Source: an uncultured Mageeibacillus sp. (GTDB taxonomy: Bacteria; Bacillota; Clostridia; Saccharofermentanales; DTU023). From it: a stretch of DNA of 26,481 bases. The first letter of the stretch is position 1. Each line of letters starts with the position of its first letter. The position numbers and the translations under genes are program-made. Location: positions 1 through 26,481 of the forward strand of contig CAZVVR010000001.1 in assembly GCA_964630605.1 (NCBI GenBank), in the 5' to 3' direction. Below are positions 2,315-26,481 of the stretch, piece by piece. The notes below the pieces were generated by a model that saw nothing but the letters and a program-made list of their open reading frames with translations, was not told the origin of the DNA and did no database searches.

Positions 2315-5300
2315 TTACTCTTCTGCTGCCGCCAGACGTTGGTAGGTTTTATATCGGCGATCTGCTGCATCACGTGCTTTGGCAAAGATTTCGTCCACCT
2401 TTTCCGGACTGTACTTTTGAGACAAAGAGGTATAACGCACCTCTCCCTTGAGGAATTCGGTGTAATCACGTTTCGGCTCTCTGGAGTCAAGAACAAAGGG
2501 GTTTTTGCCTTCCGCTTCCAGGTCAGGATTAAAGCGGTAAAGATGCCAATAACCGGTTTCAACTGCATCCTTTTCACGCTGCTGTGAAAGAACCATGCCG
2601 CCGCGAATGCCGTGGTTGATGCAGGGTGCATAAGCGATAACCAATGAAGGTCCATCATACTCTTCTGCTTCCCGCAAAGCTTTCAGGGTCTGGTTATAAT
2701 TTGCTCCCATTGATATCTGTGCTACGTAAACGTAACCATAGGACATTGCCATTAATCCCAGATCTTTTTTCTGACGTTCTTTACCACCGGCAGCAAATTG
2801 GGCCACAGCACCTAAAGGCGTAGCCTTGGAAGCCTGTCCACCGGTATTCGAATATACTTCCGTATCCAAAACCAGAACATTAACGTCTTCACCGCTGGCC
2901 AGAACGTGATCTAAACCGCCAAAGCCAATATCGTAGGCCCAGCCATCGCCACCTATAATCCACTGGGAACGCAGCATCAGGTAGTCGGATAGATCAGACA
3001 GATGTTTACAGGCTTCTCCGGCTTCACCACTTAATTTACAGTTTTTCAAAACCTGAGTCAGTTTATCTGAAACTTCACGTGAGCGTTCCCTGTCCTGGGA
3101 AAACTCATTAAAGTCTGCCAGGGCCTGGCTTAAATCAGCTGGCAGATCTTCGAATTTTTCGAGATCTTTTACCAACTGCAAAGCCCGGTTGCGAATCTGA
3201 TTATAACCCAGATACATACCAAATCCATATTCTGCATTATCTTCAAATAAAGAGTTAGCCCAGGAAGGACCATGACCGTCCCGGTTGGGACAATAAGGCA
3301 TTGAGGGCGCAGATCCACCCCAGATTGAAGTACAACCTGTAGCGTTAGCAATCATCATGCGGTCACCAAAAAGCTGAGTGGCAAGTTTAACATAGGGAGT
3401 CTCGCCACAACCGGCACAGGCACCGGAGAACTCGAGCAACGGTTCTTCAAACTGGCTGCCTTTGACGCTGAATTTTTTCAGAGGATTCTCTTTTCGTGAA
3501 ATCGTCATCGAGTAATCCCAGTTTTCAGCCTGGTGCATCTGATCTGCAAGTGGCTCCATAACTAAAGCCTTTTCCTTAGATGGGCAAACTTCAGCACAGT
3601 TACCACAGCCGGTGCAATCAAGAGCTGACGGCTGGATACGGAACTGATACTGATCATACTGTCTCATTCCGGTAATAGTCTCATAGTCTTCCGGAGCATT
3701 TGCCTTTTCTTCTTCGGTCAGCAGGAAAGGTCTGATAACTGCGTGCGGACAAACATAGGAGCACTGGTTGCACTGGATACAATTTTCGGGAATCCAGCGG
3801 GGGATATTAAAGGCTATTCCGCGTTTTTCATAACGGGAAGTACCTTGAGGGAAAGTTCCGTCCACATGATCGACAAAGGCCGACACCGGCAGCGAGTCAC
3901 CTTCCTGCCTGTTCATAACATCCGCGATATCAGTTATGAAATCAGGGGCATCACGCTCAATTTCAGCTTTGTCTTCAGCCTTGTTCCAGCTCTCAGGTAC
4001 TTCGACCTTTCTCAACTGAGAAATACCGGCGTCTACCGCATTGTAGTTCATCCTAACGATGTCTTCGCCTCTATTGCCATAAGAGCTAACAATAGCTTGT
4101 TTCATATAGGTAACCGCGTCATCAACCGGAATTACTTTACTTATTTTGAAAAAAGCAGCCTGGCAGATGGTATTGATGCGTCCGCCCAGCCCCAGTTCTT
4201 CAGCGATGGTGGCAGCATCAATAACATAGAATTCGGCGTTACGTTCTGCTAAAGCACGTTTAATCGATGCAGGAAGTTTTGCTTCGATTTCCTCATCGCT
4301 CCAGGCAATGTTAAGCAGAAATGATCCGCCTTTTTTTAAAGGAGCCAGCATATCATAAGTGTAAATATAAGCAGGCGTGTGGCAGGCGACAAAATCGGCT
4401 GTATGCACTAAATAAGGTGCACGGATCGGTTTTTTGCCAAAGCGCAGGTCGGAAATAGTCACGCCTCCGGATTTTTTGGAGTCATAAGAGAAATACGCCT
4501 GGGCATACTGGTCTGTATGATCACCGATTATCTTGATGGAGTTTTTATTTGCACCAACTGTTCCGTCAGAGCCCAGACCCCAAAAACGCGCCTGGAAAGT
4601 ATCTTTGTCAGTTACATCAACTGCTTCTTCTTCAGGTAAAGAAAGATAGCTGACATCGTCAACAATGCCAATGGTGAAATTGGTTTTGGGTTCGGGCAGT
4701 TTCAAATTGTCAAACACCGATATTATCTGTGAGGGTGTTGTGTTTTTTGAACCTAAGCCATAACGTCCGCCCACAATTTCAACCTCAGGACGTGTGTGGC
4801 AGAGAGCCTTGACTACGTCAAGATAAAGTGGTTCACCGGTGGAGCCGGATTCTTTGGTACGATCCAGGACTGCAATGCGCTTGACTGATTCAGGAATTGA
4901 CCCCAGCAGCAAAGCATCGACAAAGGGACGGTAAAGATGAACATGCAGTACTCCGGTCTTTCTTCCCCGGCTATTCAGGAAATCTACAGTTTCACAAGCT
5001 GTACCATAAACGGAACCCATGCAAATAATAATTTCTTCCGCATCGGAAGCACCGTAGTAAGAAAAAGGTTTATAGTGGCGGCCGGTAATTTTGCCGTATT
5101 CGTCCATGTAATGTTCGACAATGGACGGCAGTACTTCATAGTAAGTATTGGAAGCTTCTTTCTGCTGGAAAAATATATCCGGGTTCTGAGCCGTGCCCCG
5201 CAAGCTAGGGGCATTAGGAGTAAGCCCGCGATCGCGGAAAGCCTGAACTGCATCCATATCAACCAGTCCTGCTACATCTTCGTAGTCATAGACTTCAATT

Positions 5301-5851
5301 TTCTGAATCTCATGCGAGGTGCGGAAGCCGTCAAAAAAATGTAAAAAAGGAACACGCCCCCTGATAGCTGCCAGGTGAGCGATAACCGCCATATCCAGTG
5401 ATTCCTGAACGCTTGAAGACGCCAAAAGGGCGAATCCGGTCTGGCGCGCAGCCATAACGTCACTGTGGTCACCGAAAATCGACAAAGCATGAGCAGCGAT
5501 TGAACGGGCCGATACGTGAAAAACGGCAGGTAAAAGCTCACCGGCCATTTTATACATATTGGGCACCATCAAAAGCAGCCCCTGTGAAGCTGTATAAGTT
5601 GTCGTTAATGCTCCGGTCGCCAGAGAACCGTGAACGACTCCCGCAGCTCCCCCCTCGGATTGCATTTCGATAACATTGACCGTCTGGCCAAAAACATTTT
5701 TGCGTCCCTGCTGTGACCACTTGTCGACCAAGTCAGCCATGCTGGAAGACGGTGTAATTGGGTATATACCTGCAACTTCAGTAAACGCGTAAGATGAATA
5801 CGCAGCTGCTTCGTTGCCATCCATTGTCATAAATTGTTTGTCTTTATGCAT
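2315..5851 (-). CDS. nifJ: Pyruvate:ferredoxin/flavodoxin oxidoreductase (single-chain PFOR)
   Basis: 1178 aa. MDGNEAAA, YPITPSS, two ferredoxin motifs (CIQCNQCSYVCP, CTGCGNCAEVCP), GACAGCGETPY and TPP-binding GGDGWAYDIG..N. SD AAGGAG. Confidence 0.97.
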   Translation of the reverse strand: MHKDKQFMTMDGNEAAAYSSYAFTEVAGIYPITPSSSMADLVDKWSQQGRKNVFGQTVNVIEMQSEGGAAGVVHGSLATGALTTTYTASQGLLLMVPNMYKMAGELLPAVFHVSARSIAAHALSIFGDHSDVMAARQTGFALLASSSVQESLDMAVIAHLAAIRGRVPFLHFFDGFRTSHEIQKIEVYDYEDVAGLVDMDAVQAFRDRGLTPNAPSLRGTAQNPDIFFQQKEASNTYYEVLPSIVEHYMDEYGKITGRHYKPFSYYGASDAEEIIICMGSVYGTACETVDFLNSRGRKTGVLHVHLYRPFVDALLLGSIPESVKRIAVLDRTKESGSTGEPLYLDVVKALCHTRPEVEIVGGRYGLGSKNTTPSQIISVFDNLKLPEPKTNFTIGIVDDVSYLSLPEEEAVDVTDKDTFQARFWGLGSDGTVGANKNSIKIIGDHTDQYAQAYFSYDSKKSGGVTISDLRFGKKPIRAPYLVHTADFVACHTPAYIYTYDMLAPLKKGGSFLLNIAWSDEEIEAKLPASIKRALAERNAEFYVIDAATIAEELGLGGRINTICQAAFFKISKVIPVDDAVTYMKQAIVSSYGNRGEDIVRMNYNAVDAGISQLRKVEVPESWNKAEDKAEIERDAPDFITDIADVMNRQEGDSLPVSAFVDHVDGTFPQGTSRYEKRGIAFNIPRWIPENCIQCNQCSYVCPHAVIRPFLLTEEEKANAPEDYETITGMRQYDQYQFRIQPSALDCTGCGNCAEVCPSKEKALVMEPLADQMHQAENWDYSMTISRKENPLKKFSVKGSQFEEPLLEFSGACAGCGETPYVKLATQLFGDRMMIANATGCTSIWGGSAPSMPYCPNRDGHGPSWANSLFEDNAEYGFGMYLGYNQIRNRALQLVKDLEKFEDLPADLSQALADFNEFSQDRERSREVSDKLTQVLKNCKLSGEAGEACKHLSDLSDYLMLRSQWIIGGDGWAYDIGFGGLDHVLASGEDVNVLVLDTEVYSNTGGQASKATPLGAVAQFAAGGKERQKKDLGLMAMSYGYVYVAQISMGANYNQTLKALREAEEYDGPSLVIAYAPCINHGIRGGMVLSQQREKDAVETGYWHLYRFNPDLEAEGKNPFVLDSREPKRDYTEFLKGEVRYTSLSQKYSPEKVDEIFAKARDAADRRYKTYQRLAAAEE

Positions 5852-5924: not shown

Positions 5925-7487
5925 CTATTTTTCGATCAAAGACGTGCCTGTCATTGCTTCCGGTTGCTTCAGATTTGCTAATTCCAGTATTGTAGGAGCC
6001 AAATCAGCCAGCCTTCCGTCCCTAAGTTCAACCCCCTTGACTCCGGCCAGAATTAGCGGAACCGGATTACAGGTATGAGCAGTAAACGGTCCGGTATTTT
6101 CAAAGTCAATCATTGTTTCCGCATTGCCGTGATCAGCTGTAATCAAGGCTACCCCGCCTTGATCAAGGATCAGCGGCACCAGTTTTGCCAATGATTTATC
6201 AACTGTTTCGACTGCTTCGACAGTCGCTGAGAAAACACCGGTATGGCCAACCATGTCACAATTTGCATAATTCATAACAATCAGATCGTAAATCTTCTCC
6301 TCGACCAGTTGTGCCACAGCTGCTGTCAGCTCCGGTGCGCTCATTTCGGGTTGCAAGTCATAAGTTGCCACTTTAGGTGACTGAATAAGCAGGCGATCTT
6401 CTCCGGAAAAACTATCTTCACGGCCACCGTTAAAAAAGAAAGTCACATGTGCATATTTTTCCGTTTCGGCAGCACGCAGCTGCCTCAAATTTGCCCGGGA
6501 GAATATCTCTCCCAGACTTTCAGTGACATCCTCAGCTTCGAAAGCTATTTTTAAATTTCTATAATTATTAAATTGGTTGTCATATTCCGTCATGCTGACA
6601 TAATCCAGCTGACCAGGTTCCAGCACAGTAGTAAATTCGGCAAATTCCGGATCCATAAAAGCTCGCGTCAATTCCCGTGCCCTGTCCGGCCGGAAATTAA
6701 AGAAAATAAAGCTGTCTCCGGATTCCAACAAAGCAATGGGCCTGCCGGCTGCATCAGTTATTTGAGCAGGATGCAAAAACTCATCCGTAACCCCGTTAGC
6801 ATAAGATTGTCTGATATATTCGACGGCAGATTGACTGCTGGGTCCTTTATAATCAATATCGCTGATAGCTTGATAAGCTTTGTGCACCCGCTCCCAGCGC
6901 CGGTCACGATCCATCGCATAATAACGACCTGAAACGGATGCAATTTTCCCAATTTGATTCAGCTGAATAAAGGACTCCAGCGCTTTGGTATATTCCAGGC
7001 CGGATTCTGGTGCTGTATCGCGACCGTCGTAAAAAGCGTGGATATAAACTTTTTCCAGGTTCAGTGACTTTGCCATTTCCAGCAAGGCGAAAAGATGATT
7101 AATATGACTGTGCACTCCTCCGTCAGACAAAAGTCCGGCTAAATGCAGGGCCTTTCCCCGGTCACGGGCGGAAATCATGCTGTTTTTAAGCACTTCGTTT
7201 TCAAAAAAACTCTTATCATCAATTGCAAGGTTTATACGCATTAAATCCTGGTAAACAATCCGTCCCGCACCTATGTTGGTATGTCCTACTTCAGAGTTTC
7301 CCATCTGTCCTTCGGGCAGTCCGACATCAAGACCACTGGTATAAATCCTGCTGGATTTCCACTCGCTGAATAATTTATCCAAATAAGGAGTGTCAGCTGC
7401 TTTTACAGCGTTGCCTTCTGTTTCTTCGGATAAACCCCAGCCGTCAAGAATAATTAAGGCCAGAGGACGATATTTAAGCTCTGTCAT
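5925..7487 (-). CDS. gpmI: 2,3-bisphosphoglycerate-independent phosphoglycerate mutase
   Basis: LIILDGWG, GQMGNSEVGH, DGGVHSH, GRYYAMDRD, NFRPDRARE, AETEKYAHVTFF, DMVGHTG, TADHGNAE, TAHT. Start placed at ATG 7487 (SD GAAAGGA); the ORF track extends to 7514. Confidence 0.97.
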   Translation of the reverse strand: MTELKYRPLALIILDGWGLSEETEGNAVKAADTPYLDKLFSEWKSSRIYTSGLDVGLPEGQMGNSEVGHTNIGAGRIVYQDLMRINLAIDDKSFFENEVLKNSMISARDRGKALHLAGLLSDGGVHSHINHLFALLEMAKSLNLEKVYIHAFYDGRDTAPESGLEYTKALESFIQLNQIGKIASVSGRYYAMDRDRRWERVHKAYQAISDIDYKGPSSQSAVEYIRQSYANGVTDEFLHPAQITDAAGRPIALLESGDSFIFFNFRPDRARELTRAFMDPEFAEFTTVLEPGQLDYVSMTEYDNQFNNYRNLKIAFEAEDVTESLGEIFSRANLRQLRAAETEKYAHVTFFFNGGREDSFSGEDRLLIQSPKVATYDLQPEMSAPELTAAVAQLVEEKIYDLIVMNYANCDMVGHTGVFSATVEAVETVDKSLAKLVPLILDQGGVALITADHGNAETMIDFENTGPFTAHTCNPVPLILAGVKGVELRDGRLADLAPTILELANLKQPEAMTGTSLIEK

Positions 7488-7506
7488 ATAGTTCCTTTCA
7501 CCGTGA

Positions 7507-9450
7507 TCAGGCATTGGCGATTACATTAAAAGCGTCAGCCTTGAGTGATGCACCGCCCACCAAACCACCGTCGATCGACTCAGATGCAAAAAGTTCTGCT
7601 GCATTTTCTGCATTTACTGAACCACCGTAGAGAATCTGTACCCGCTCAACCCAGTTGGCAGGGTATTTCTTCCCGAGCAGTGAGCGAATGAAAGCACAAG
7701 CTTCTCCGGCCTGTTCTACCGTTGCGGTGCGTCCGGTGCCGATAGCCCAGATAGGCTCATAAGCCACTATTATCTGTACCAGTTTATCGGCTGTAACAAA
7801 TTCAAATGCAGATTCAATCTGACGAGTTAAAACTTCCTCAGTTTCTTCTGCTTCCCGCTCTTTTAATGACTCTCCGCAGCAGAGAATAGGACGCAAACCC
7901 CAGTTTAGGGCTGATCTCAGCATGATTTGCACGCGTTCATCAGATTCGTTGTCCATGGCACGACGCTCCGAATGTCCGATCAGCACATACGGGACATGCA
8001 TTTTTGCCAGAAAAGCCATTGACACATTTCCGGTATAAGCTCCGGAATCTACTTCATGTCCGGCTTGTGCAGCGATATGTATATTGCTGTAAGCACTGGC
8101 AGTCAAAGCTGCATCGAGTGCAGTAAATGGTGGAGCCACAATTATTTTGGCAGGGGCATCAGAAAGTTTATGCTTTAATTCTTCAATAAAAGCGACAGCC
8201 TCTGCCGGTACTCCCTTGTTCATTTTCCAGTTGCCGGCTGCAACCGTACGTCTGGGATCCAGATCCAACAAACAGTCCACTCCGGGCAGCACTCTGCCTT
8301 CAAGCAGTTCCAGTGATGCTCCGCCCCCGGTTGAAATATGTGTCATGCGTTCAGCATCACCGAATTGCCTGACCGCAGCAGCTGAATCTCCTCCGCCGAT
8401 AATGGTGACAGCATCTGACCGGGCCATGGCTGCGGAAATTGCTTTGGTTCCTTCTGCAAAGGCCGGGAATTCAAAGACCCCCATAGGTCCGTTCCAGACT
8501 ACGGTGCCGGATGATTCAATAATCTCAGCGAAAGCCTGACAGCTTTTAGGTCCTATATCCAATCCCTGCCAGTCTGCCGGAATCTCATCGCTGTTTACTG
8601 TGCGTTTTTCAGCATCAGGGGAAAATTCGCTGGCGATCACCGTATCCTGCGGCAAGCTAAGTCTGACGCCTTTTTCTTCAGCTTCAGCCATCAATTCCCG
8701 GGCCAGATCTATTTTGTCGTTTTCGAGCAAAGAATGACCGACTTCCAGACCTTTTGCAGCCATAAAAGTATAGGCCATGCCTCCGCCGAGAATCAGATTG
8801 TCTACTTTATTGAGCAGGTGCCTGATGACACCGATTTTATCCGATACTTTCGCTCCGCCCATCACTGCTGTGAAAGGTCTCTGCGGATCTTCGACAGCGC
8901 CGCCGATCATTTCCAGCTCACGCTGAATCAGATCACCGGAAACACCCGGCAAAAAGCTGGCGACTCCGGCCGTGGACGCATGAGCACGATGTGCTGTGCC
9001 GAATGCATCATTAACATATAAATCTGCCAGGGCTGCCAGGCTGCGGGCAAATTCAGGATCATTTTTTGTTTCTTCTTTATGAAAGCGCACATTCTCCAAC
9101 AACATAACCCGGCCATTTTCCAGAGCAGCAGATTTCTCTTTGGCATCAGCACCTATCACGTCCTGCGCCTGAACAACCTTTTGCTCTAACAGTTCAGAAA
9201 GACGTTGAGAGCAAACTGCTAAGGATAATTTGCTGTCAAAACCCCGGGGACGCCCCAGATGCGATACCAGGATCAGACAGGCACCACGGGACAAAAGCTT
9301 CTTGATCGTGGGCAAAGCAGCCACTATCCTCTGGTCATCCATAATTTCACCGCTGTTTTTGTCCAGAGGCACATTAAAGTCAACGCGCATTAAAACCCTC
9401 TTACCCTGAACATCAATATCGTCATGTGTCATTTTTTTGGCTTTTAACAT
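7507..9450 (-). CDS. pgk-tpiA: Bifunctional phosphoglycerate kinase / triosephosphate isomerase, in-frame fusion
   Basis: aa ~1-399 are PGK ([64 protein letters not shown]). aa ~401-647 are TIM ([35 protein letters not shown]). No stop or frame change at the junction. Confidence 0.96.
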
Positions 9451-16104: not shown

Positions 16105-17142
16105 CTAAAGTTTGGCTTTTGGCAAACTAACACCAAAAACCCGCTCAAGATTCGCCTTGGGGCCAATATCATCCGGAAAAAATTGAGCTGCCTGGTACAT
16201 ATAAAGGGCAGGAATTTCATTACCTTCAATAACCACCGGACCGTCAGCAGTCACGGTGATGTCCCAGCCGGCATAGGCTTGTTCGGGCACTACCAAAGCC
16301 AGCTCACGGGCATAATCCAGAACCTGATCGAAAAAGGGAATTTGAAAACCGACGAATTCAGTTCCCGTAATCGGATGACGGTCAACAAAACGCCGGCAGG
16401 GTTTAAAGCTGATGCAGGGATAAAGCAAAATTCCGTCGTCTGAAATCATGGTATAACCACCACCGCGGCTTACATTGTCCACCACCGGGTCAGACATGGA
16501 AGTGCGCAGACGATTATATAAAATTTCAACACTGCCGTCAGCCTGCAAAACCGTCCCTATACGCAGTGTGCACAAAGCTGCCGGGGAAATCGGCAGCAAG
16601 TCTTTGTGCAGAATTATTTCTTCTTCCAGCACTGTCTGCTCTTTATCCAGCAAAATACGATAAAGCTGAGCCAGGTCAGTTTCTGCATTCGTTTTTATCT
16701 TGTCGACCCCTTCGCCGCCATGTCCGCGGGGGATTTTTGCAAAAAAAACAGGATGCCGCTGCACAAATTCCTGAAAAGCTTGCTGGGAACTTTCTTGCAA
16801 GTCCAGATGATCCCGGCGCAAAAACTGTGAGAAACGCCGGTTGAATTCTGCTTTGTCGCTGAAAATAGCCTGCGATTCCGCTGTCGAGCTGCTGCGGATC
16901 AATAGCCGGTTGTCGATATATTCCGATCCAAAAGTTGCTCGCAGCTCCGGATCTGTAATGCGATCGAACTCGTACAGCGAATACTCGGCCCAAGTATAAC
17001 CACCGCGTTTGTACATGCGTGTTTGGTCCCGGAGCAGATCAAAAAATCCACGTCCGGAATCTTTACTCAGCTGTCTGGTAGATTTTAACAGTGTACTCCA
17101 GTCAGCAGTAAAGATTTTTGCAATTTTAGAAAAAACATTCAC
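16105..17142 (-). CDS. ATP-grasp protein (resembles the sugar-transfer-associated / alpha-L-glutamate ligase-like ATP-grasp family)
   Basis: DKAEFNRRF, FAKIPRGHGGEGV, LEEEI, CTLRIGT, VVDNVSRGG, HPITG, GWDITVTADGPVVIEGN. Start placed at GTG 17142 (SD GGAAGGT); the track start 17187 is also possible. Confidence 0.8.
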   Translation of the reverse strand: MNVFSKIAKIFTADWSTLLKSTRQLSKDSGRGFFDLLRDQTRMYKRGGYTWAEYSLYEFDRITDPELRATFGSEYIDNRLLIRSSSTAESQAIFSDKAEFNRRFSQFLRRDHLDLQESSQQAFQEFVQRHPVFFAKIPRGHGGEGVDKIKTNAETDLAQLYRILLDKEQTVLEEEIILHKDLLPISPAALCTLRIGTVLQADGSVEILYNRLRTSMSDPVVDNVSRGGGYTMISDDGILLYPCISFKPCRRFVDRHPITGTEFVGFQIPFFDQVLDYARELALVVPEQAYAGWDITVTADGPVVIEGNEIPALYMYQAAQFFPDDIGPKANLERVFGVSLPKAKL

Positions 17143-17189
17143 GATTACGACCTTCCGTAAATTATGATAATTTTCGCCTGTTTGCACTT

Positions 17190-18823: not shown

Positions 18824-19786
18824 TTAAACTTCCTCTTCTTCCCTGAAAACAGCACTGACATCAGTAGACAGTAATTTATTAAGCTGCAGCAGCTTGTAAT
18901 CGCTGTCTACATTAACCAAACCGATCATCTGATACTCACCTGAAATAGGTTCTACTACTAAATCCGGATAAATATGAAAACTTTTGACACCACCGGTACT
19001 TTTTACGTGCAGGCGCGGACCTGTACAATAATGGCGCTGATCGCCAATCAGGATATGAGTGTCATCGACATATGAAATAGGAAGATCACGCTCAATCAAA
19101 TCCTGCACATCGGACTCTATTTTTCGCAGATCAAGTTCCGGCTTATCGTGGAAGGTCAAAACAAAACCCGAACGAACATCTGAGTGATCATAATGAAAAA
19201 TGCGGTGGTCCAAAAGCACAAATTCAGTTAAATCTTCTGCGGTATGAGCCATTCGACGTGTCGGGAAAGAGGCGAACACAATATCTTTAATATAGTCAGG
19301 TTCTGGTCCGAACATATTAGGCCGGGTAATGATGATTTCTTCACCTACTCCCAGCAGCAGATGCGCATTCATATCCAGGAAAGGATAAATTAAGTCAAAA
19401 TGCTCAACGATGACACGTTTTTTGCGGTTAACCGCCTCCATGATTGCGGTCGCCAGCTCATGCGGCTGATAAAAAGCCATTTCAAAACGAATATCAACAT
19501 GATAGGTATGCGGAGAAAAAAAACCGGTATCGTCAAGATTCATAACAGGCAAAGGACGGACATTTACACCCTCATCGTCGTTGGTCAGCTCCAGACCGGG
19601 AAACATGCCTTTAATCAAAACGCTTTTACCTGATCCGCCTTCTCCTATCACGCCAATCAGCCGGTCATAGGGTGAAAGATACATCTGTGCTATTTGAGCG
19701 CCCTGATCCGCCAGCCGGGCTGCTCCGCGCGGACACAGCAGTACACTATACAAGTGGCTTTTCTGCATACGTTGCGAAAATGACAT
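18824..19786 (-). CDS. Uncharacterised protein: N-terminal P-loop NTPase/kinase-like domain plus C-terminal Ala/Thr-tRNA-synthetase editing (SAD/AlaX)-like domain
   Basis: Walker A GVIGEGGSGKS and Walker-B-like RVIVEHFD. RMAHTAEDL and HYCTGPRLHV resemble the HxxxH and CxGxH zinc motifs of AlaX/ThrRS editing domains. ATG 19786 with SD GGAGG. Confidence 0.7.
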   Translation of the reverse strand: MSFSQRMQKSHLYSVLLCPRGAARLADQGAQIAQMYLSPYDRLIGVIGEGGSGKSVLIKGMFPGLELTNDDEGVNVRPLPVMNLDDTGFFSPHTYHVDIRFEMAFYQPHELATAIMEAVNRKKRVIVEHFDLIYPFLDMNAHLLLGVGEEIIITRPNMFGPEPDYIKDIVFASFPTRRMAHTAEDLTEFVLLDHRIFHYDHSDVRSGFVLTFHDKPELDLRKIESDVQDLIERDLPISYVDDTHILIGDQRHYCTGPRLHVKSTGGVKSFHIYPDLVVEPISGEYQMIGLVNVDSDYKLLQLNKLLSTDVSAVFREEEEV

Positions 19787-20070
19787 AAATGCCTCCAATT
19801 TGCTTATGGCTGTCCGGTAATAACAGCAAACAGCCGATTTTTATCAATTATAAACATTTTACCAGTAATCAGAGATAACTGCCTTGTCACAGTTGTTTGA
19901 TCTCTGACATCAAAATCAGCTGCTCCCGGGAAATTAACACCTGTTTTCACAATAACTCATGTAGTTGTCACATTTATTGCTATTTGCTCACTGTGATTCC
20001 TGCCTTCACTACTATACTGTGGAGCATGAATACTTATTATTTAGTCAAAGTAGATTTTTCGGAGTAACCA

Positions 20071-21117
20071 ATGGATAAAGAAACAATTTACGTCATAAGT
20101 GGTGCTTCCGGGCATTTGGGTAATACCGTTGTACGCAAGCTTTTGCAAAAAGGCGAAAACGTACGGTGTCTGATTATGGAAGCTGAACGTCCTGAGGCCT
20201 TACAGGGACTGGACTGCGAAGTTTACAGCGGTGATATCACCAAACCCGGGACACTGGTGCCGCTTTTTACCGGTCTGGAAAATAAAAACCTAATTGTGCT
20301 GCATCTGGCCAGCATGATTTCTATTGCCTCAAAAATTGACCCTCGCATGACCAAAACCAATGTTGAGGGAACCCGGAACATGATAGACCTGGCTCGTGAG
20401 CACAAGGCAAAACGCTTTCTCTATTGCAGCTCAGTCCACGCTATCCCGGAAAAAAAATTCAACGCTCCTATCAGTGAAGTATATTCCTTCAACCCGGATT
20501 GGGTAAAAGGAGCATATGCTAAAACCAAAGCTGCAGCCACAGAAAAAGTTATGCAAGCCGGACGTGATGGTATGGACATTGTAGTAGTGCACCCCTCCGG
20601 CATTGTTGGCCCCAACGATTACTTGCAGGGCCGACTGGTACAGGTGTTACTGGACTTTGCCGACAGCCGCCTGAAAACAATGGTAAAAGGCGGCTACGAT
20701 ATGGTGGATGTGCGCGATGTCGCAACCGGGCTGATTGCTGCCGCAGAAAAGGGACGCTCCGGTGAAACTTACATTCTGAGCAACGAAATTCACTCTATGG
20801 GTGAAATGTGCGACATTGCAGCAGAGTACAGTGGCAGAAAACCAATCCGCAGACGGGTACCTTTTAACTTGGTTAAATTGCTGGCTCCTTTGTTCGAGTT
20901 ATGGGGTAAACTGCGAAAAAAACGCCCGCTACTCACCCCCTATGCGCTTTATTCTCTGGAAAGCAACTCTAATTTTTCCAACGAAAAAGCCCGCCGTGAG
21001 CTAGGATTCTCACCGCGGCCTTTTCCGGAAACAGTTATAGACACTATGGCTTTTTTAGAAGATAAAAAACGATTTCGCTATCAGTTTAAAACTAACCGGG
21101 CTAAAAGCCGCGCTTAG
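20071..21117 (+). CDS. Extended SDR, NAD(P)-dependent epimerase/dehydratase (dihydroflavonol-reductase/HpnA-like)
   Basis: Rossmann motif VISGASGHLG, HLASMI, TNVEGT, CSSVHA, catalytic YAKTK, HPSGIVGP, VDVRDVA, GETYIL. SD GGAG. Confidence 0.88.
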   Translation: MDKETIYVISGASGHLGNTVVRKLLQKGENVRCLIMEAERPEALQGLDCEVYSGDITKPGTLVPLFTGLENKNLIVLHLASMISIASKIDPRMTKTNVEGTRNMIDLAREHKAKRFLYCSSVHAIPEKKFNAPISEVYSFNPDWVKGAYAKTKAAATEKVMQAGRDGMDIVVVHPSGIVGPNDYLQGRLVQVLLDFADSRLKTMVKGGYDMVDVRDVATGLIAAAEKGRSGETYILSNEIHSMGEMCDIAAEYSGRKPIRRRVPFNLVKLLAPLFELWGKLRKKRPLLTPYALYSLESNSNFSNEKARRELGFSPRPFPETVIDTMAFLEDKKRFRYQFKTNRAKSRA

Positions 21118-22523
21118 TCCTCCAGCTGACAGATCCGATCTAAAATTTCACCGTCACGAGACCGTACCAGTGCAACTGTGCGGTCTTTTCTTTTAACCGG
21201 CCTGGGCACGCCGCAAATTTTCTCCGCTTTCATTTTTAATTCCCTGATATCAAAAACAGGCAATCCGGCTGTTTGAAAACGTTTCCGCAAATCCGAACGC
21301 AACGGATTAACGGCAATTCCATACTGGGTCAGCAAGACATCAACATCTTTGCCCGGTGTAGAGATACAAGTAACCCGATCAACGATCGAAGGTAATCTGG
21401 CCCGAAACAAAGGCGCTATAATCATTGACATGGAGGCTCCGGCAGCTGTATCACTGTGACCGCCCGACCCTCCCATAATGACACCACCGGAATCCGTATG
21501 CACATTAACGTTGAAAGCGAGGTCAATTTCTGTAGCACCCAGGATAACCACATCCAGTTGTTGTGCCACATTGCTTTTTGCCTCCGGACTGGCATAACGG
21601 GAAGCGCTGATCTCAATATGCCGTTTATTCTCTGCAATCGATTTGACTGCTGCCCGGTCAAAGCACTGCACGTCGAGCAGCTTTTGGAACATGCCCGTGT
21701 TCAACATATCCACCAGCATGCCGGTGATGCCACCGGAAGCAAAACTGCCTTGAATCTCTTGAGACAACATGCGTTGGTTAAGGCCTTGCGCAACTGCCAG
21801 CGAGGCTCCTCCGGCCCCGGTCTGGAAAGAAAATCCATTCTGTAAAAGACCTGAAGCGGCAATGGCGTCAACGGCAAGATCAGCCATAAGCAGGCCAATG
21901 GGATCGCGGGTTACACGTGTAGTACCGGAAACTATTTTCTCCGGATCCCCGATAGAATCTACAAAAACCACGGCATCGACCAAACTTTCGTCAATCGAAC
22001 TGTGCTCCAGCGGATAAGTGGATTTTTGATCGCTGATAATTATTACATAGTCAGCAAATGCTGCATCTGCCATGGCGTAGCCAATAGAACCGAAAGCAGA
22101 TTTACCGGTAAATCCGTTGCAGTTCCCGGCTGCGTCAGCAGCAGAAGCAGCAATAAAAGCGACATCTATCTTGGATTCTCCGCGTTGAAGATCAGCGGGG
22201 CGTCCACCGTGGCTGCGGAAAATAATAGGTTTTTCAAGCAGGCCCCGGCTAAATTTCTCACCGAGTGCCAGATCCATGTAATTACATTCGAGGCCGCTGA
22301 CTACTCCTTGCGCGACATGATCAAGCAGCGGTTTATGGCAGGGAAAAAGAGCACTGGCATTGACGGTAAGATCCCTGTATCCCAACTCAGAAATAGCTGA
22401 CATTACCCTGTTCAAAACGTAATCACCATTGCGCAGATGATGGTGAAATGATACGGTCATGCCGTCTTCCAGAGAGGAGACTTTGATCGCACTTTTTATA
22501 TCTTTGAATTCTTTACTTAGCAT
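21114..22523 (-). CDS. citF: Citrate-lyase-type alpha subunit (acyl-ACP transferase); probably citramalate lyase by context
   Basis: DGMTVSFHHHLRNGD, RSHGGR, IDVAFIAA, FQTGAGGASLAV, DVQCFD, LGATEID, GGSGGHSDTAAGA, TPGKDVDV, RDGEILD. Confidence 0.9.
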   Translation of the reverse strand: MLSKEFKDIKSAIKVSSLEDGMTVSFHHHLRNGDYVLNRVMSAISELGYRDLTVNASALFPCHKPLLDHVAQGVVSGLECNYMDLALGEKFSRGLLEKPIIFRSHGGRPADLQRGESKIDVAFIAASAADAAGNCNGFTGKSAFGSIGYAMADAAFADYVIIISDQKSTYPLEHSSIDESLVDAVVFVDSIGDPEKIVSGTTRVTRDPIGLLMADLAVDAIAASGLLQNGFSFQTGAGGASLAVAQGLNQRMLSQEIQGSFASGGITGMLVDMLNTGMFQKLLDVQCFDRAAVKSIAENKRHIEISASRYASPEAKSNVAQQLDVVILGATEIDLAFNVNVHTDSGGVIMGGSGGHSDTAAGASMSMIIAPLFRARLPSIVDRVTCISTPGKDVDVLLTQYGIAVNPLRSDLRKRFQTAGLPVFDIRELKMKAEKICGVPRPVKRKDRTVALVRSRDGEILDRICQLED

Positions 22524-23407
22524 TGGTCACCTTTTTCCAAACCATCCATAAGACCGCTGACACGAGCAATTTCCACTGTCTTTTTGGCTTGTTCGGCCAC
22601 TGGTTTGTCAATCATTTTCCCCCGCAAAGAAGCAGCTCCTGCTCCTGATTTGAGGGCTTGCTCCATTACCCGGATAACCTCCAGTGCAAATTCTATTTCT
22701 GACTGAGTCGGAGTAAAAGCCTGATGTATACCTTTTAAGTGATGGGGAGAAATCGCCAGCTTTCCGCTGAAACCAAGCGATTTGGCCAGAAGAGCATCTT
22801 CCAGTAAACCGGCCCTGTCCCGGGCATCGGTAAAAGGTGTGTCAATCGCCTGAATACCGGCTGCACGGGCAGCTATCACCAGTCTTTGCCTGCTGTAAAG
22901 CAACTCCTGACCCTCTTTAGTGCGGGTGCAGCCAAGATCAACAGCCAGATCTTCACCGCCCAAGGCCAGAGCAACCACTCTTTGCGAAGCCCGGGCAGCC
23001 TCAAAAGCAAACTCGATGCCGGCAGCCGTTTCAATTAAAGGCAGCAGTCTGATACTGCCGGCTTTTATCTCAGCTTCTTTTTCTATCACATGTAATAAAG
23101 CATCGATTTCTTTTATTAAAGCGGAACCTGCAACCTTAGGCAGCATGATGCTGTCTGCCCCCGCCGGGACGACAGCTCTGATATCCTGCTCACGCAAATC
23201 GCTGTTTTCATTAATTCGCACAATTTTTTCGCGTGGGCCAAAATCAAGGCACTGAAGGGCAGATGCTACCAAATTTCTGGCACTGTCTTTTTCATCCGCC
23301 GCCACTGCATCTTCCAGGTCAAAAATAAGAGCGTCCGCCGGCAGGACCGTTCCGTTTTGGAGAAGAGAAGCCTGGTTGCCGGGTAAAAATAAAAGTGATC
23401 GCCACAT
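22517..23407 (-). CDS. citE: Citrate-lyase-type beta subunit (acyl-ACP lyase, HpcH/HpaI family)
   Basis: RSLLFLPG, FDLEDAV, VRIN, LPKV, LIETA, ALGGED, DTPFTD, GFSGKLAISP, MIDKP. ATG 23407 with SD AAGGAG; the track extends to 23437. Confidence 0.9.
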   Translation of the reverse strand: MWRSLLFLPGNQASLLQNGTVLPADALIFDLEDAVAADEKDSARNLVASALQCLDFGPREKIVRINENSDLREQDIRAVVPAGADSIMLPKVAGSALIKEIDALLHVIEKEAEIKAGSIRLLPLIETAAGIEFAFEAARASQRVVALALGGEDLAVDLGCTRTKEGQELLYSRQRLVIAARAAGIQAIDTPFTDARDRAGLLEDALLAKSLGFSGKLAISPHHLKGIHQAFTPTQSEIEFALEVIRVMEQALKSGAGAASLRGKMIDKPVAEQAKKTVEIARVSGLMDGLEKGDQC

Positions 23408-23417
23408 ATAACTCTCC

Positions 23418-23678
23418 TTAATCAAAGGACCGCTCAAGTGCTGTTTTCAGCCTGGCCCGAATGGTGCAGTCTAAAGCGCCGCGATCTATTAGCTCAATCT
23501 CTGCTGCTGTAATACCCATTTTTTTCAAAACTTCATCCACCGTTTCACGGATAGTATCTCCGTATTGGGCCAGCACCGGCGATTTTATTGCTACCGATAA
23601 ATTTTCTGATGGCCGGATTCGGACCATCACATCGCTGGATTCAAGACTTCCGGCCACTGCCATCCTGCTCGGATTCAT
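23418..23678 (-). CDS. citD: Citrate-lyase-type acyl carrier protein (gamma subunit)
   Basis: 86 aa. AGSLESSD with Ser14 (the prosthetic-group serine position in CitD), QYG..I, DRGALDCTIRAR. Confidence 0.92.
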   Translation of the reverse strand: MNPSRMAVAGSLESSDVMVRIRPSENLSVAIKSPVLAQYGDTIRETVDEVLKKMGITAAEIELIDRGALDCTIRARLKTALERSFD

Positions 23679-24938
23679 TTATAACCTCTTTCTTTGTTTT
23701 GCGCTTCTTAAGGCTAAAATATCCTGCATTTCGTTGTAGACAATCATCAGTCCCTCATCAACACCCATGCCCGGTTTTGCTAAAATCTGATCTGGCTGGC
23801 TGGCCATTGCAACCTGGGTGCAGATCTGGGCAGAGCGGACAGTCTCGTTGCAAGTCCCGCCCTGGTAAGCTTTTACCCCATTTTTTTTGCAATAAAGAGT
23901 TGCTTGAATAGTCTTGTGCAGGCCACCCAGATCCGGTGTTTTCACCTGAATCATGTGACCGGCTCCGGCATCAACAAAATCAACCACATCCTGATAATTG
24001 TTACACCATTCGTCAGCAACCAGTTCCACGGGAATGTTTCGTTTGTTAATCAAAGAGGTCAAAGCAGCCAAATGCTTTATTGTGTCAGCCTTGTTGCCTG
24101 CATCCATCGGACCTTCGATCCGCAGTTTAAAGGGTGCGGCAGCTGCTGCCAAGGTCTCCAGATAAACCGCCATAACCTCGTAGTTATCGTCACCAAAAGC
24201 CTGACCTATGGTACCGTAAACATCAATATGTAAAATAGGCATATACTCCGGATCGAGTCTGTGGGTTTTGATACGATTACTTAACCACCCAACGTACTCC
24301 AGCAGCAGTTCGCCCTTTTCACCCAATTTATCAGCAACATTGTTAATTAAAGCGTGAGGCATGACATCAGCTTGCTTGATGATCATTTTGTCTGCGTTTT
24401 CATAGCGATTGTCGCCTGACTGGCAGAAAACAGGAAGAGTTTTTGAGCTGACTTCAAGACCGTATTCATCAGCTACCAGCTCACAGATCATACACTTGTT
24501 AGCCTTAGCCAGTGCATCCAGCAACACCTGAGACAAACCGTAGCGAATAGCAGTATGCAGTCTCTTACCGTCAGCGGTACGAAAATCTTCCCACTCACTT
24601 ATCATTTTGCGAAAAGAGGTTAACGTCCTTTCTTTCAGCAAAGGTGCAATTTCTTTTTCAATTAAAGGGATAAAATCTGCTGCCAGAAAAAGCGGATCGC
24701 GCCCGCCGGCTCCGGAATACTGCACCGCAGTACAATCACCGTAAGCGACTTGTCCATCTTCTAAAATTAACATTAAAGAAACAGACTCGCCTGCTTGTCT
24801 GACTGATGAAAAACCTGCTGTCGCTGCTTCTCCCAGGTAGAAAAGCCCGTCCATCCGCGCTCCGGCTTTGATAGCCTTTTGATCGTCAAAATAGAAGCCG
24901 GTTCTGCCCGGTGCACAGATTAATTGCTTTATTTTCAT
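23679..24938 (-). CDS. mal: Methylaspartate ammonia-lyase (beta-methylaspartase)
   Basis: TGFYFDDQ, AVQYSGAGGRDPLF, HTAIRYG, PHALINN, HIDVYG, RIEGP, ADEWCN, QVKTPDLGG, GGTCNET, AKPGMGVDEG. ATG 24938 with SD GGGAG; the track extends to 24953. Confidence 0.97.
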   Translation of the reverse strand: MKIKQLICAPGRTGFYFDDQKAIKAGARMDGLFYLGEAATAGFSSVRQAGESVSLMLILEDGQVAYGDCTAVQYSGAGGRDPLFLAADFIPLIEKEIAPLLKERTLTSFRKMISEWEDFRTADGKRLHTAIRYGLSQVLLDALAKANKCMICELVADEYGLEVSSKTLPVFCQSGDNRYENADKMIIKQADVMPHALINNVADKLGEKGELLLEYVGWLSNRIKTHRLDPEYMPILHIDVYGTIGQAFGDDNYEVMAVYLETLAAAAAPFKLRIEGPMDAGNKADTIKHLAALTSLINKRNIPVELVADEWCNNYQDVVDFVDAGAGHMIQVKTPDLGGLHKTIQATLYCKKNGVKAYQGGTCNETVRSAQICTQVAMASQPDQILAKPGMGVDEGLMIVYNEMQDILALRSAKQRKRL

Positions 24939-24956
24939 ATTATTCTCCCGCATTTT

Positions 24957-26408
24957 TTATTTAGGTCTGCCGACCAATCTGCCTTTACTGATTGCGTAAA
25001 CATCATCTATAACCATCTGGAAAGAGGCCTCGCGATTCTCGTAGCGTGCCCGCTCACGCATTTTTTCCTGATGAAATTCTTTGAGTTCGGCTGTCAGAGG
25101 AATATTTCCGACGTGAAAAAGTCTGATTGCTCCTTCGTTGTCTCGGGCCGGCAGCATTTTACCTGCGTTAAAACGGCTGGGGGCGAATGGGATATCGAGA
25201 ACACCGGAACCGACTGCCAAAATAACTCCTTTGGCTAAATTGCCTGCACCGAGCTCTATTATACGATCTACAACGCAACGCGTTTCAGCGGCAATAATGA
25301 CTTTTTCATCTTTAAGGCTATAGGTATCGAGCTGCTGGTCACCCAGCATATTGATACTTTGCCTGGTACACAGCAGGCCGGCAGCGTTGGCCTCTTTGGT
25401 AGGCACACCAAATGCTTCGTGTGACGTTTTGGCAATCACTTTGGTGGCGTGTGACAAAGCAGCTACAGCACTGCCCCAGGCGATTACAGCAAAGGCCTTG
25501 GATTCATCATCGGGAAAGCCGCCCATCCATTGATGCAGCACTGTCGTGACTTCAACATCGCCATAACCGTATTTGCGCAAATATTCATCGGTCAGACTCT
25601 GTAAAGTCTGTACTGCAGCAACATCCTGCACTAAATTACCGCACTGGCCGTAACCAACCGTAATATTTTTCACTCCCTGTTCTGCTGCCAAAAGGCTTTC
25701 AATAATTGCGACGCTGTGGGAAATAAAAGGTGGTACCAGCGTGCCGGTTAGCGGTCCGTAAGGCTCGCGGTTAATGGGACAGCCTGCTTCCTCATAAATT
25801 CCGCTTAAGCGGTCAACATATTGCCAGTCGCGAATGGTAGTTTCCAAAGAGACATCTTTAGCATAAGGGATATTATAAGATATGCCCCCACCCTCAAAAC
25901 TGGTAAAACCTCCTGCATAGCATACCTCTGCCAAAAGACGTGCATCCGGAGTTCCGTGTCGGACCTGGATCGGTTTTTCCAGCGAATCAATCAGTTGCCT
26001 GCAGCCGGAAACACCATGATTTACAGCCGGGAAACCGTTGAGCATGGATTTGTTGCTTTTTACGGATTCGGTGATACCGACTTCAGCTTCTTTATAACGG
26101 TTCTGCCGTGTGTAACTGTCAATTGTGGTCGGAAGCAAATCAGCCTCACCCTTGTCCTGCAAATATTGCAGCAGTCGGATCTGATCCTGTATCAAGGGAA
26201 CTCCCGCACGGGGCTGAGTCAGAGTAGTCCCCTTTTCTTTCGCTTTGTTCAAAATATTGCTGAAAACCTTGCGCCTGGGCAAACTCTTGTGATAGGCCTG
26301 TGCTTTGTCCAAATCCACCTCTTTACCGGTGGGCCATTGTGTCAAAACATCCTTCCTGACCTTTTCAAATTCGTCCCGTGTCCATTTTTTATTTTGTAAT
26401 TCTCGCAT
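24957..26408 (-). CDS. glmE: Glutamate (methylaspartate) mutase, B12-dependent, E (epsilon) subunit
   Basis: [87 protein letters not shown]. 483 aa. SD GAGAGG. Confidence 0.97.
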
Positions 26409-26422
26409 TTTTTACCTCTCGC

Positions 26423-26481
26423 TTAAATTAACTGTTTATCGGCTAAAAACATAACCTGTTTGCCTGCATATTTGGTGCCAT
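26423..26481 (-). CDS. Possible 3' end of an upstream gene (unidentified)
   Basis: Open frame ...GTKYAGKQVMFLADKQLI* ends 14 nt before the glmE ATG. Too short to assign. GlmS or GlmL would be expected by context, but no motif was recognised. Confidence 0.3.
   Translation of the reverse strand, partial: GTKYAGKQVMFLADKQLI

Follow-up and report, generated by a model that had tools for sequence, protein, structure and literature searches.

A citDEF gene set joined to methylaspartase in an uncultured Saccharofermentanales bacterium probably encodes (S)-citramalate lyase

The stretch of DNA described here, referred to as the window, is an entire 26.5-kb contig (C1; GenBank CAZVVR010000001.1, 26,481 nucleotides [nt]) of a 1.62-Mb metagenome-assembled genome (MAG; completeness, 87.5%) from an uncultured Mageeibacillus sp. 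of the Saccharofermentanales. Its nearest protein relatives carry the labels Fastidiosipila or Saccharofermentanales, and landfill, bioreactor, sludge, and manure metagenomes contain DNA near-identical to it. One end of the window holds genes for glutamate mutase, 3-methylaspartate ammonia-lyase (methylaspartase), and a three-subunit lyase of the CitDEF type. A first-pass annotation had read citDEF as a citramalate lyase rather than a citrate lyase. The direct junction with mal, the complete pathway in the genome, the presence of a single citDEF set, the failure to find a 2HCT or CitT citrate carrier, a CitAB system, or an OadA-type decarboxylase, and the phylogeny support that reading. We think it probable that the product of these genes is the (S)-citramalate lyase with which a complete methylaspartate pathway ends.

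Gene content and layout

The minus strand carries glmE, mal, citD, citE, and citF as a head-to-tail run of five genes, as seen from both the open reading frame (ORF) list and the sequence. They are preceded by the presumed end of glmL and followed, farther along the same strand, by a citX-citG fusion.

26423..26481, minus strand: presumed 3' end of glmL (MutL-type glutamate mutase reactivase), running off the contig end; stop TAA at 26425-26423, 14 nt before the glmE ATG
24957..26408, minus strand: glmE, glutamate (methylaspartate) mutase subunit E; TIGR01503 (MthylAspMut_E) 762 bits, PF06368 738 bits
23679..24938, minus strand: mal, 3-methylaspartate ammonia-lyase; TIGR01502 (B_methylAsp_ase) 555 bits (cut-off, 286), MAAL_N and MAAL_C
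23418..23678, minus strand: citD-type acyl carrier protein (ACP; gamma subunit), 86 amino acids; TIGR01608 83 bits and NF009726 103 bits, both above cut-off; PF06857
22517..23407, minus strand: citE-type beta subunit, proposed (3S)-citramalyl-ACP lyase, 296 amino acids; PF03328 (HpcH_HpaI) 198 bits, TIGR01588 283 bits
21114..22523, minus strand: citF-type alpha subunit, proposed acetyl-ACP:(S)-citramalate ACP-transferase, 469 amino acids; TIGR01584 589 bits, PF04223 557 bits
17190..18788, minus strand: citX-citG fusion; PF03802 144 bits (residues 16-177), PF01874 170 bits (residues 193-448)

The glmE stop (TAA, 24959-24957) is separated by 18 nt from mal, counted to the ATG at 24938 behind the Shine-Dalgarno sequence GGGAGA; an alternative in-frame ATG at 24953 was judged the less likely start. 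The mal stop (TAA, 23681-23679) abuts the citD ATG (23678-23676) with a gap of 0 nt, and the 10-nt gap between the citD stop (TAA, 23420-23418) and the citE ATG (23407-23405) contains GGAGAG. The citF ATG (22523-22521) overlaps the end of citE (stop TAA, 22519-22517) by 7 nt (ATGCTAA), and citF ends at 21114. These spacings had been given in the first-pass annotation and are borne out by ORF coordinates and sequence. There are no terminator-like sites in the glmE-citF junctions, which have no room for them, and a scan for promoter and terminator consensus sequences returned nothing above shuffles. The presumed glmL tail is an open frame (...GTKYAGKQVMFLADKQLI, then the stop); its 18 residues are not recognizably conserved and have no match to GlmL tails.

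The three consecutive genes from 23678 to 21114 specify an ACP, an HpcH/CitE-type lyase, and a CitF-type transferase, which is the CitDEF-type architecture. In CitD, the prosthetic-group serine motif VAGSLES14SDV aligns with AGTLESGDV of Escherichia coli CitD, and after Klebsiella pneumoniae CitD, we take Ser14 to be the carrier of 2'-(5''-phosphoribosyl)-3'-dephospho-CoA. The TIGR01588 score of the window CitE lies below the equivalog cut-off of 443.4, and that of E. coli CitE is 452. We rejected this cut-off as a discriminator for citE, since only E. coli passes it and citrate-context and mal-linked Firmicutes proteins alike score 283 to 365. The closest solved structure to the window CitE is human CLYBL (5vxc, E = 6.5e-46). 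The citX-citG fusion is predicted from its domains to make triphosphoribosyl-dephospho-CoA and to attach it to the ACP (holo-ACP formation); together with the ligase gene citC on another contig (C45, 3921-4979), it completes the maturation set. Pfam scans of the 18 main ORFs of the window found no oxaloacetate decarboxylase, citrate transporter, or CitAB, in agreement with the first-pass annotation.

Pathway genes elsewhere in the genome

A tblastn search of the MAG with proteins of related loci located mesA-mesB-gntR-glmS on contig C160, followed by the 5' part of glmL, within which the contig terminates. Relatives have glmL directly upstream of glmE, and their order is mesA-mesB-gntR-glmS-glmL-glmE-mal (L004-L009). 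Because C160 breaks within glmL, an ORF tail precedes glmE in the window, and the order in relatives matches, the two contigs probably abut. Glutamate mutase, methylaspartase, and mesaconase are therefore encoded with the lyase, as glmE-mal-citDEF in the window and mesAB-gntR-glmS-glmL on C160; citC is full length and stands alone on its contig.

The MAG holds a single CitF gene and a single CitE-like gene, so that the window set is the only citDEF in the genome. All steps from glutamate to citramalate are encoded, and this set is the only candidate for citramalate cleavage. No homologues of 2HCT, CitT, or CitAB were found by tblastn of the genome, and CitMHS-superfamily matches were weak (34 to 41 bits only). 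An OadA-type decarboxylase was likewise not found in the genome; the sole OAD_beta gene adjoins a Carboxyl_trans alpha subunit gene, an arrangement of the methylmalonyl- or glutaconyl-CoA decarboxylase type and not of OadA.

Related loci and phylogeny

One genome per species was scanned with a CitF alignment to obtain the 80 nearest CitF loci, whose neighboring ORFs were labeled by BLAST against reference proteins verified with Pfam. In 51 of the 80, all from other genomes, mal, glm, or mes genes lie within 10 kb of citDEF, and the order mal-citD-citE-citF recurs in five loci (L003, L004, L005, L009, and L072); the adjacency of mal and citDEF is not due to chance. Ten loci, the E. coli reference included, have genes for a 2HCT carrier, malic enzyme, or CitAB-like system as neighbors, and 21, many of them on short contigs, have neither type of link. 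A class-wide survey of 401 genomes found CitF in 35, and 22 of the other 34 CitF-bearing genomes also carry mal, mostly within 10 kb. The higher-scoring "classical" copies came from this survey; 28 regions were retrieved and their neighbors annotated. Classical copies adjoin TctCBA, OadA and CitMHS, 2HCT, or aconitase and IDH.

Among the first 80 loci, mal-linked and transporter-linked sets interleave in the tree, and monophyly of the mal-linked set alone was rejected by the approximately unbiased (AU) test (p = 1e-5). An informative split emerged only once the classical citrate lyases from the class survey joined the data set (CitF, 110 rows; CitE, 101 rows; careful concatenated tree, 65 rows). 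Separate CitF and CitE trees give the same single split. One side, here called clade II, holds all mal-linked rows (57 CitF and 54 CitE), nine transporter-linked rows, and some unlinked rows; the other holds E. coli and every Tct-, Oad-, or aconitase/IDH-linked copy and has no mal-linked member. The split receives 100/100 support in the concatenated tree, which includes K. pneumoniae (L112, oadGAB-citS-linked) and Enterococcus faecium (L111, citM-2HCT-citCDEFXG), and the window proteins do not group with these verified citrate lyases or with that of E. coli. Their own subclade (L003-L006, L008, and L009) is entirely mal-linked. Clostridium-type loci (L071, L076, L079, L084, and L086) also fall in clade II with the window; the sequence of Clostridium tetanomorphum itself is not among the rows. 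The first-pass annotation had proposed phylogeny as a check, and the mal-linked copies do all stand in a clade apart from verified and Oad-linked citrate lyases; the clade is not exclusive to them, however, as nine transporter-linked loci nest within it.

Some genomes carry both lyase types. In G135, a 2HCT-linked classical set (L083) coexists with a clade II mal-mesAB-citDEF-citC set (L084), and in G295, an aconitase-IDH-linked classical set (L085) coexists with a mal-linked clade II set (L086). G107 has the same two-copy pattern, judged from coordinates only. Formivibrio citricus, which ferments citrate, likewise pairs its clade II copy (L077) with a classical CitF scoring 775 bits. The retention of both types in one genome argues that classical and clade II sets are not interchangeable.

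These data bear on whether the window set could be an ordinary citrate lyase that lies fortuitously beside glutamate genes while citramalate is cleaved by another enzyme. CitF and CitD do pass the cut-offs of family models for citrate lyase subunits, and an alternative, two-subunit citramalate lyase exists according to a 2026 preprint that uses it (cmlAB of Raoultella planticola). We nevertheless regard such an arrangement as very unlikely, given junctions of 0 to 10 nt from mal onward, a linkage repeated in dozens of genomes, and proteins that fall outside the verified citrate lyase clade with 100/100 support, in a genome where no other CitE-like gene, 2HCT or CitT carrier, or OadA-type decarboxylase was found.

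Residue signature

Alignments of classical and clade II proteins differ at the following positions, given in E. coli numbering.

CitE Y34 in classical proteins: Leu in clade II (Met, Phe, or His in some); L22 in the window
CitE R101 in VVRLPK, 19/19 classical: Met or Leu, rarely Val or Ile, with 0 Arg in 82 clade II proteins; M88 in the window
CitE A137 in classical proteins: Leu in clade II; L124 in the window
CitE DTV(Y/F)SD in classical proteins: DTPFTD in clade II; P191 in the window, replacing the classical Val
CitE E217 in classical proteins: Asp in clade II; D204 in the window
CitF S122-G123-x-R125 in classical proteins (R125 in 21/21): N/D-Y-M-x in clade II, non-basic throughout; N81-Y82-M83-D84 in the window
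CitF R/K250-E/D251 in classical proteins (Arg or Lys at 250 in 19/21): V/I-G in clade II (Ala in a few); I209-G210 in the window
CitF R391 in most classical proteins shown (Met in L073): Met or Ile in clade II; M350 in the window

Four arginines that are invariant or nearly so in classical enzymes (CitE R101 and CitF R125, R250, and R391) are thus replaced by non-basic residues in clade II. HMMER alignments to solved structures place a hydrophobic residue at the CitE R101 position: human CLYBL and the malyl-CoA lyase of Rhodobacter sphaeroides (4l9y) both have Met, Yersinia RipC has Val, and 5ugr, a malyl-CoA/beta-methylmalyl-CoA lyase, has Leu. CLYBL and RipC are known citramalyl-CoA lyases. 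In the HaloMS/MCL enzymes, a proline touches the methyl group of pyruvate; no correspondence was established between it and the proline that replaces the classical Val. Fewer basic residues and added bulk would be expected where a methyl group takes the place of carboxymethyl in the substrate, if these positions lie near it. Within clade II, one position tracks genomic context: CitF R450 is Arg in 22/23 classical, 9/9 transporter-linked, and 23/58 mal-linked proteins, being lost in 35/58 of the last. Among the first 80 loci, no position cleanly separates mal-linked from transporter-linked proteins.

Substrate and mechanism

By analogy with citrate lyase and with the C. tetanomorphum enzyme, the genes would be transcribed together and would act as follows. 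GlmS and GlmE, kept active by GlmL, would convert glutamate to (2S,3S)-3-methylaspartate, from which Mal would remove ammonia to give mesaconate, and MesAB would add water to yield (S)-citramalate. CitXG would build the prosthetic group and attach it to Ser14 of CitD, and CitC would acetylate its thiol to start the cycle. CitF would exchange the acetyl group on that thiol for citramalate, freeing acetate, and CitE would cleave citramalyl-ACP to pyruvate and regenerated acetyl-ACP. The opposite direction, an anabolic route from pyruvate and acetyl-ACP through citramalate to glutamate, might be considered because all steps are chemically reversible in principle and the MAG is small (1.6 Mb). It appears extremely unlikely to us: the lyase equilibrium lies toward cleavage, organisms known to ferment glutamate and histidine share the GntR regulator and the catabolic-type layout, the Peptoclostridium acidaminophilum cluster has hut genes next to it, and the literature searched offers no support.

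Several points weigh against the assignment to citramalate. Evidence from expression is weak: one metatranscriptome (X11), which may contain DNA, gave only low-depth, fragmentary contigs, none of which spans the mal-citD junction. The failure to find citrate-uptake genes is weak evidence because the MAG is 87.5% complete, and the low TIGR01588 score of CitE is not diagnostic because transporter-linked Firmicutes CitE proteins also score 302 to 365. In the literature searched, we found no report of an enzyme assay of a recombinant CitDEF-type citramalate lyase or clade II enzyme. The window CitE and its own subclade have Ala (Ala148 in the window) at the equivalent of Met133 of Rv2498c, which touches the 3-methyl group of bound (S)-citramalyl-CoA (PMC6689899, where the Yersinia itaconate pathway is also described). 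This position, two columns ahead of the invariant GxED magnesium motif, is Ala or Ser in classical CitE and mostly Phe or Leu in clade II, a difference that counts in favor of citramalate for the clade at large. The window resembles the classical enzymes here, and its CitF also retains the R450 equivalent (R409).

Nine loci that adjoin a 2HCT carrier, malic enzyme, or CitAB also nest inside clade II and keep its full signature, so that clade membership and signature do not prove specificity. The malic enzyme neighbors suggest that the product is oxaloacetate and hence that the substrate is citrate; if these loci cleave citrate, the signature is no specificity marker. Searches for mal found none in four genomes (those of the transporter-linked loci L007, L029, and L074 and of F. 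citricus) and none in G032, G068, and G101, the source of a further three of these nine loci.

The main competing explanation is a bifunctional complex that cleaves both citramalate and citrate, its substrate set by context (mal or transporter operon). It would account for the interleaving of the two sets in clade II and the AU rejection of mal-linked monophyly, for the lack of any clean separation within the clade other than the relaxation of CitF R450, and for the R409 and small Ala148 of the window. Against it, genomes that need both functions (G135 and G295) retain two paralogous sets, and the window proteins lack four basic residues that classical enzymes have. Citrate lyase of E. coli is without cross-activity toward citramalate (PMC4682846), and the search of this genome for a 2HCT or CitT citrate carrier found none. 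We therefore hold bifunctionality to be unlikely and prefer (S)-citramalate as the substrate of the window enzyme.

A broader proposal can be offered only tentatively. Clade II might form a family of its own among ACP-dependent lyases, widespread and with (S)-citramalate as its ancestral substrate, the loss of CitE R101 and CitF R125, R250, and R391 having turned a citrate lyase into a citramalate lyase. The nine transporter-linked loci might then serve the catabolism of imported citramalate or another 2-hydroxy-dicarboxylate, or might represent a secondary return to citrate through other residues, with CitF R450 as a retained determinant.

Databases still label these genes as citrate lyase or "CoA ester lyase," as no assay of a recombinant CitDEF-type enzyme has surfaced in our search. 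Relatives of the window proteins are named "citrate lyase subunit alpha" and "CoA ester lyase" at NCBI and "citrate lyase subunit beta/citryl-CoA lyase" at JGI, which bears out the remark in the first-pass annotation that automated "citrate lyase" labels would be wrong here. With a clean clade split and a short signature, annotation pipelines could tell the two enzymes apart and could better predict the fermentation of glutamate and histidine to acetate and butyrate by gut and digester communities.

Neighboring genes and side observations

Other features of the window are listed here.

18824..19798, minus strand: P-loop and AlaX-like domain protein, function unassigned, 324 amino acids; putative member of the unit by co-occurrence
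20071-21117, plus strand: SDR/epimerase gene, HpnA-like, 206 bits (below cut-off); the only plus-strand gene
16105-17187, minus strand: ATP-grasp gene (PF14397), following citXG after a 2-nt gap
2315..5851, minus strand: pyruvate:ferredoxin oxidoreductase (PFOR); POR_N, POR, EKR, PFOR_II, Fer4, TPP_enzyme_C
7507-9450, minus strand: phosphoglycerate kinase-triosephosphate isomerase (PGK-TIM) fusion, 647 amino acids

The 324-amino-acid protein has no Pfam or NCBIfam match. It contains the Walker A motif GEGGSGKS, its relatives are labeled [quoted passage not shown] at NCBI, and its AlphaFold model (pLDDT 78) resembles TsaE/YjeE-like ATPases and AlaX/ThrRS editing domains. Of the 80 nearest CitF loci, 40 contain its gene, often placed between citC and citG; each of the 40 is mal/glm/mes-linked, and the citrate-context and unlinked loci among the 80 all lack it. 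The gene is absent from Clostridium-type clusters and present in P. acidaminophilum, between citC and citX. One speculation is that the protein might be a deacylase that edits or switches off the acyl-ACP of the lyase.

The SDR gene runs toward citF, the two stop codons overlapping, and L003, L005, and L009 also have an inverted SDR gene at this position. The ATP-grasp gene was considered as a substitute for CitC and rejected: its product does not resemble CitC, the syntenic relative L009 does without the gene, and the true citC lies on C45. The gene is probably a lineage-specific addition or part of the downstream cell-envelope block. PFOR had been proposed in the first-pass annotation as a consumer of the pyruvate; the gene is real and the role plausible, but it does not belong to the unit, being a housekeeping gene 15 kb away that is split from citXG by unrelated cell-wall and glycolysis genes. 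By Pfam, the main ORFs outside the five-gene run comprise DnaD/DnaI-like proteins, PFOR, iPGM, the PGK-TIM fusion, PHP, GT2, VanW, NlpC/P60-SH3, ATP-grasp, the citX-citG fusion, the unassigned 324-amino-acid protein, and SDR.

Three observations concern other loci. In the transporter-linked clade II loci L007, L014, and L038 (~7000-8850 in each), a two-subunit aconitase-family hydratase (415 and 179 amino acids) lies between the 2HCT carrier and citD; malic enzyme is present too, and CitAB occurs in L007 and L014. The substrate of these loci may be citrate, aconitate, citramalate, or another 2-hydroxy acid. On the P. acidaminophilum megaplasmid (L113, 596093-617499), urocanase, ftcD, and hutI lie directly beside citXG, the P-loop gene, citC, citDEF, gntR, glmSLE, mal, and a corrinoid adenosyltransferase gene, forming a single histidine-to-pyruvate island in a cultured strain. 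In L088 (G230, copy 2), a clade II citE-citF pair adjoins split transketolase genes, and neither mal nearby nor citD was detected.

Comparison with known systems

The purification of citramalate lyase dates from 1976. That citDEF of clostridial glm-mal clusters encodes this enzyme was already stated by Kronen and Berg (2015; PMC4682846), who name CitDEF and CitCXG accordingly, citing Buckel and Bobi (1976) and Boiangiu (2005), and who show that the citrate lyase of E. coli does not act as a citramalate lyase. The first-pass proposal of a candidate genetic basis is therefore supported but not new; what is added here, in modest measure, is the division into clades, the pairs of paralogues within single genomes, and the loss of arginines as a signature, all of which open the assignment to testing. 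One genome paper calls the methylaspartate pathway incomplete for want of citramalate lyase (PMC6163223). In a 2026 preprint other than that on cmlAB, Blautia coccoides and B. celeris were chosen as methylaspartate-pathway strains, B. celeris for 13C-histidine tracing to acetate and butyrate, and 13C-histidine tracing to glutamate was reported for B. coccoides; the B. celeris locus (L010) is of the mal-linked type, like the window.

One of the closest known counterparts is (S)-citramalate lyase of C. tetanomorphum (EC 4.1.3.22; Buckel and Bobi 1976), which matches the window in proposed pathway role, three-subunit ACP architecture, and CitC, CitX, and CitG helpers. The clostridial glm-mal-mesAB clusters (PMC4682846) have the same gene set (gntR, glmS, glmL, glmE, mal, mesA, mesB, and citDEF), and the Clostridium-type loci L071, L076, L084, and L086 share clade II and its signature. 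In Clostridium, mesAB lies between mal and citD, whereas here mesAB-gntR is upstream of glmS and mal abuts citD; the window genome further differs in its unlinked citC, fused citX-citG, added P-loop/AlaX-like gene, and inverted SDR gene. Identity to the C. liquoris and C. cadaveris proteins is 45% for the window CitE and ~52 to 53% for its CitF, the C. tetanomorphum sequence itself being outside this comparison.

Citrate (pro-3S)-lyase of K. pneumoniae, E. coli, and Enterococcus (EC 4.1.3.6) is homologous, with 48% (CitF) and 43% (CitE) identity between the window and E. coli. The two share the CitD serine motif, the maturation genes, and presumably the two-step transferase and lyase mechanism. 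Unlike citrate lyase, the window set lacks CitE Y34, R101, A137, and V204 and CitF S122-G123-x-R125, R250-E251, and R391, is not linked to CitS/CitT/2HCT, OadGAB, CitM, or CitAB, and has a CitF without the ~40-residue N-terminal extension.

Stand-alone (S)-citramalyl-CoA lyases (CLYBL, 5vxc; Yersinia RipC, 3qll; and Mycobacterium tuberculosis Rv2498c, 6aq4) belong to the same TIM-barrel fold family as the window CitE and share with it a hydrophobic residue preceding (L/I)PK, the stretch MLPKV being identical in CLYBL and the window. The proposed chemistry, cleavage of a citramalyl thioester to pyruvate and an acetyl thioester, would be common to both. The stand-alone enzymes act on free CoA esters from a separate CoA-transferase, whereas the window lyase is encoded with its own ACP and ACP-transferase subunit. 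Measured against these systems, the window cluster is of a known kind, ordinary and well preserved, and comes from an uncultured MAG of Saccharofermentanales/Fastidiosipila-like type.

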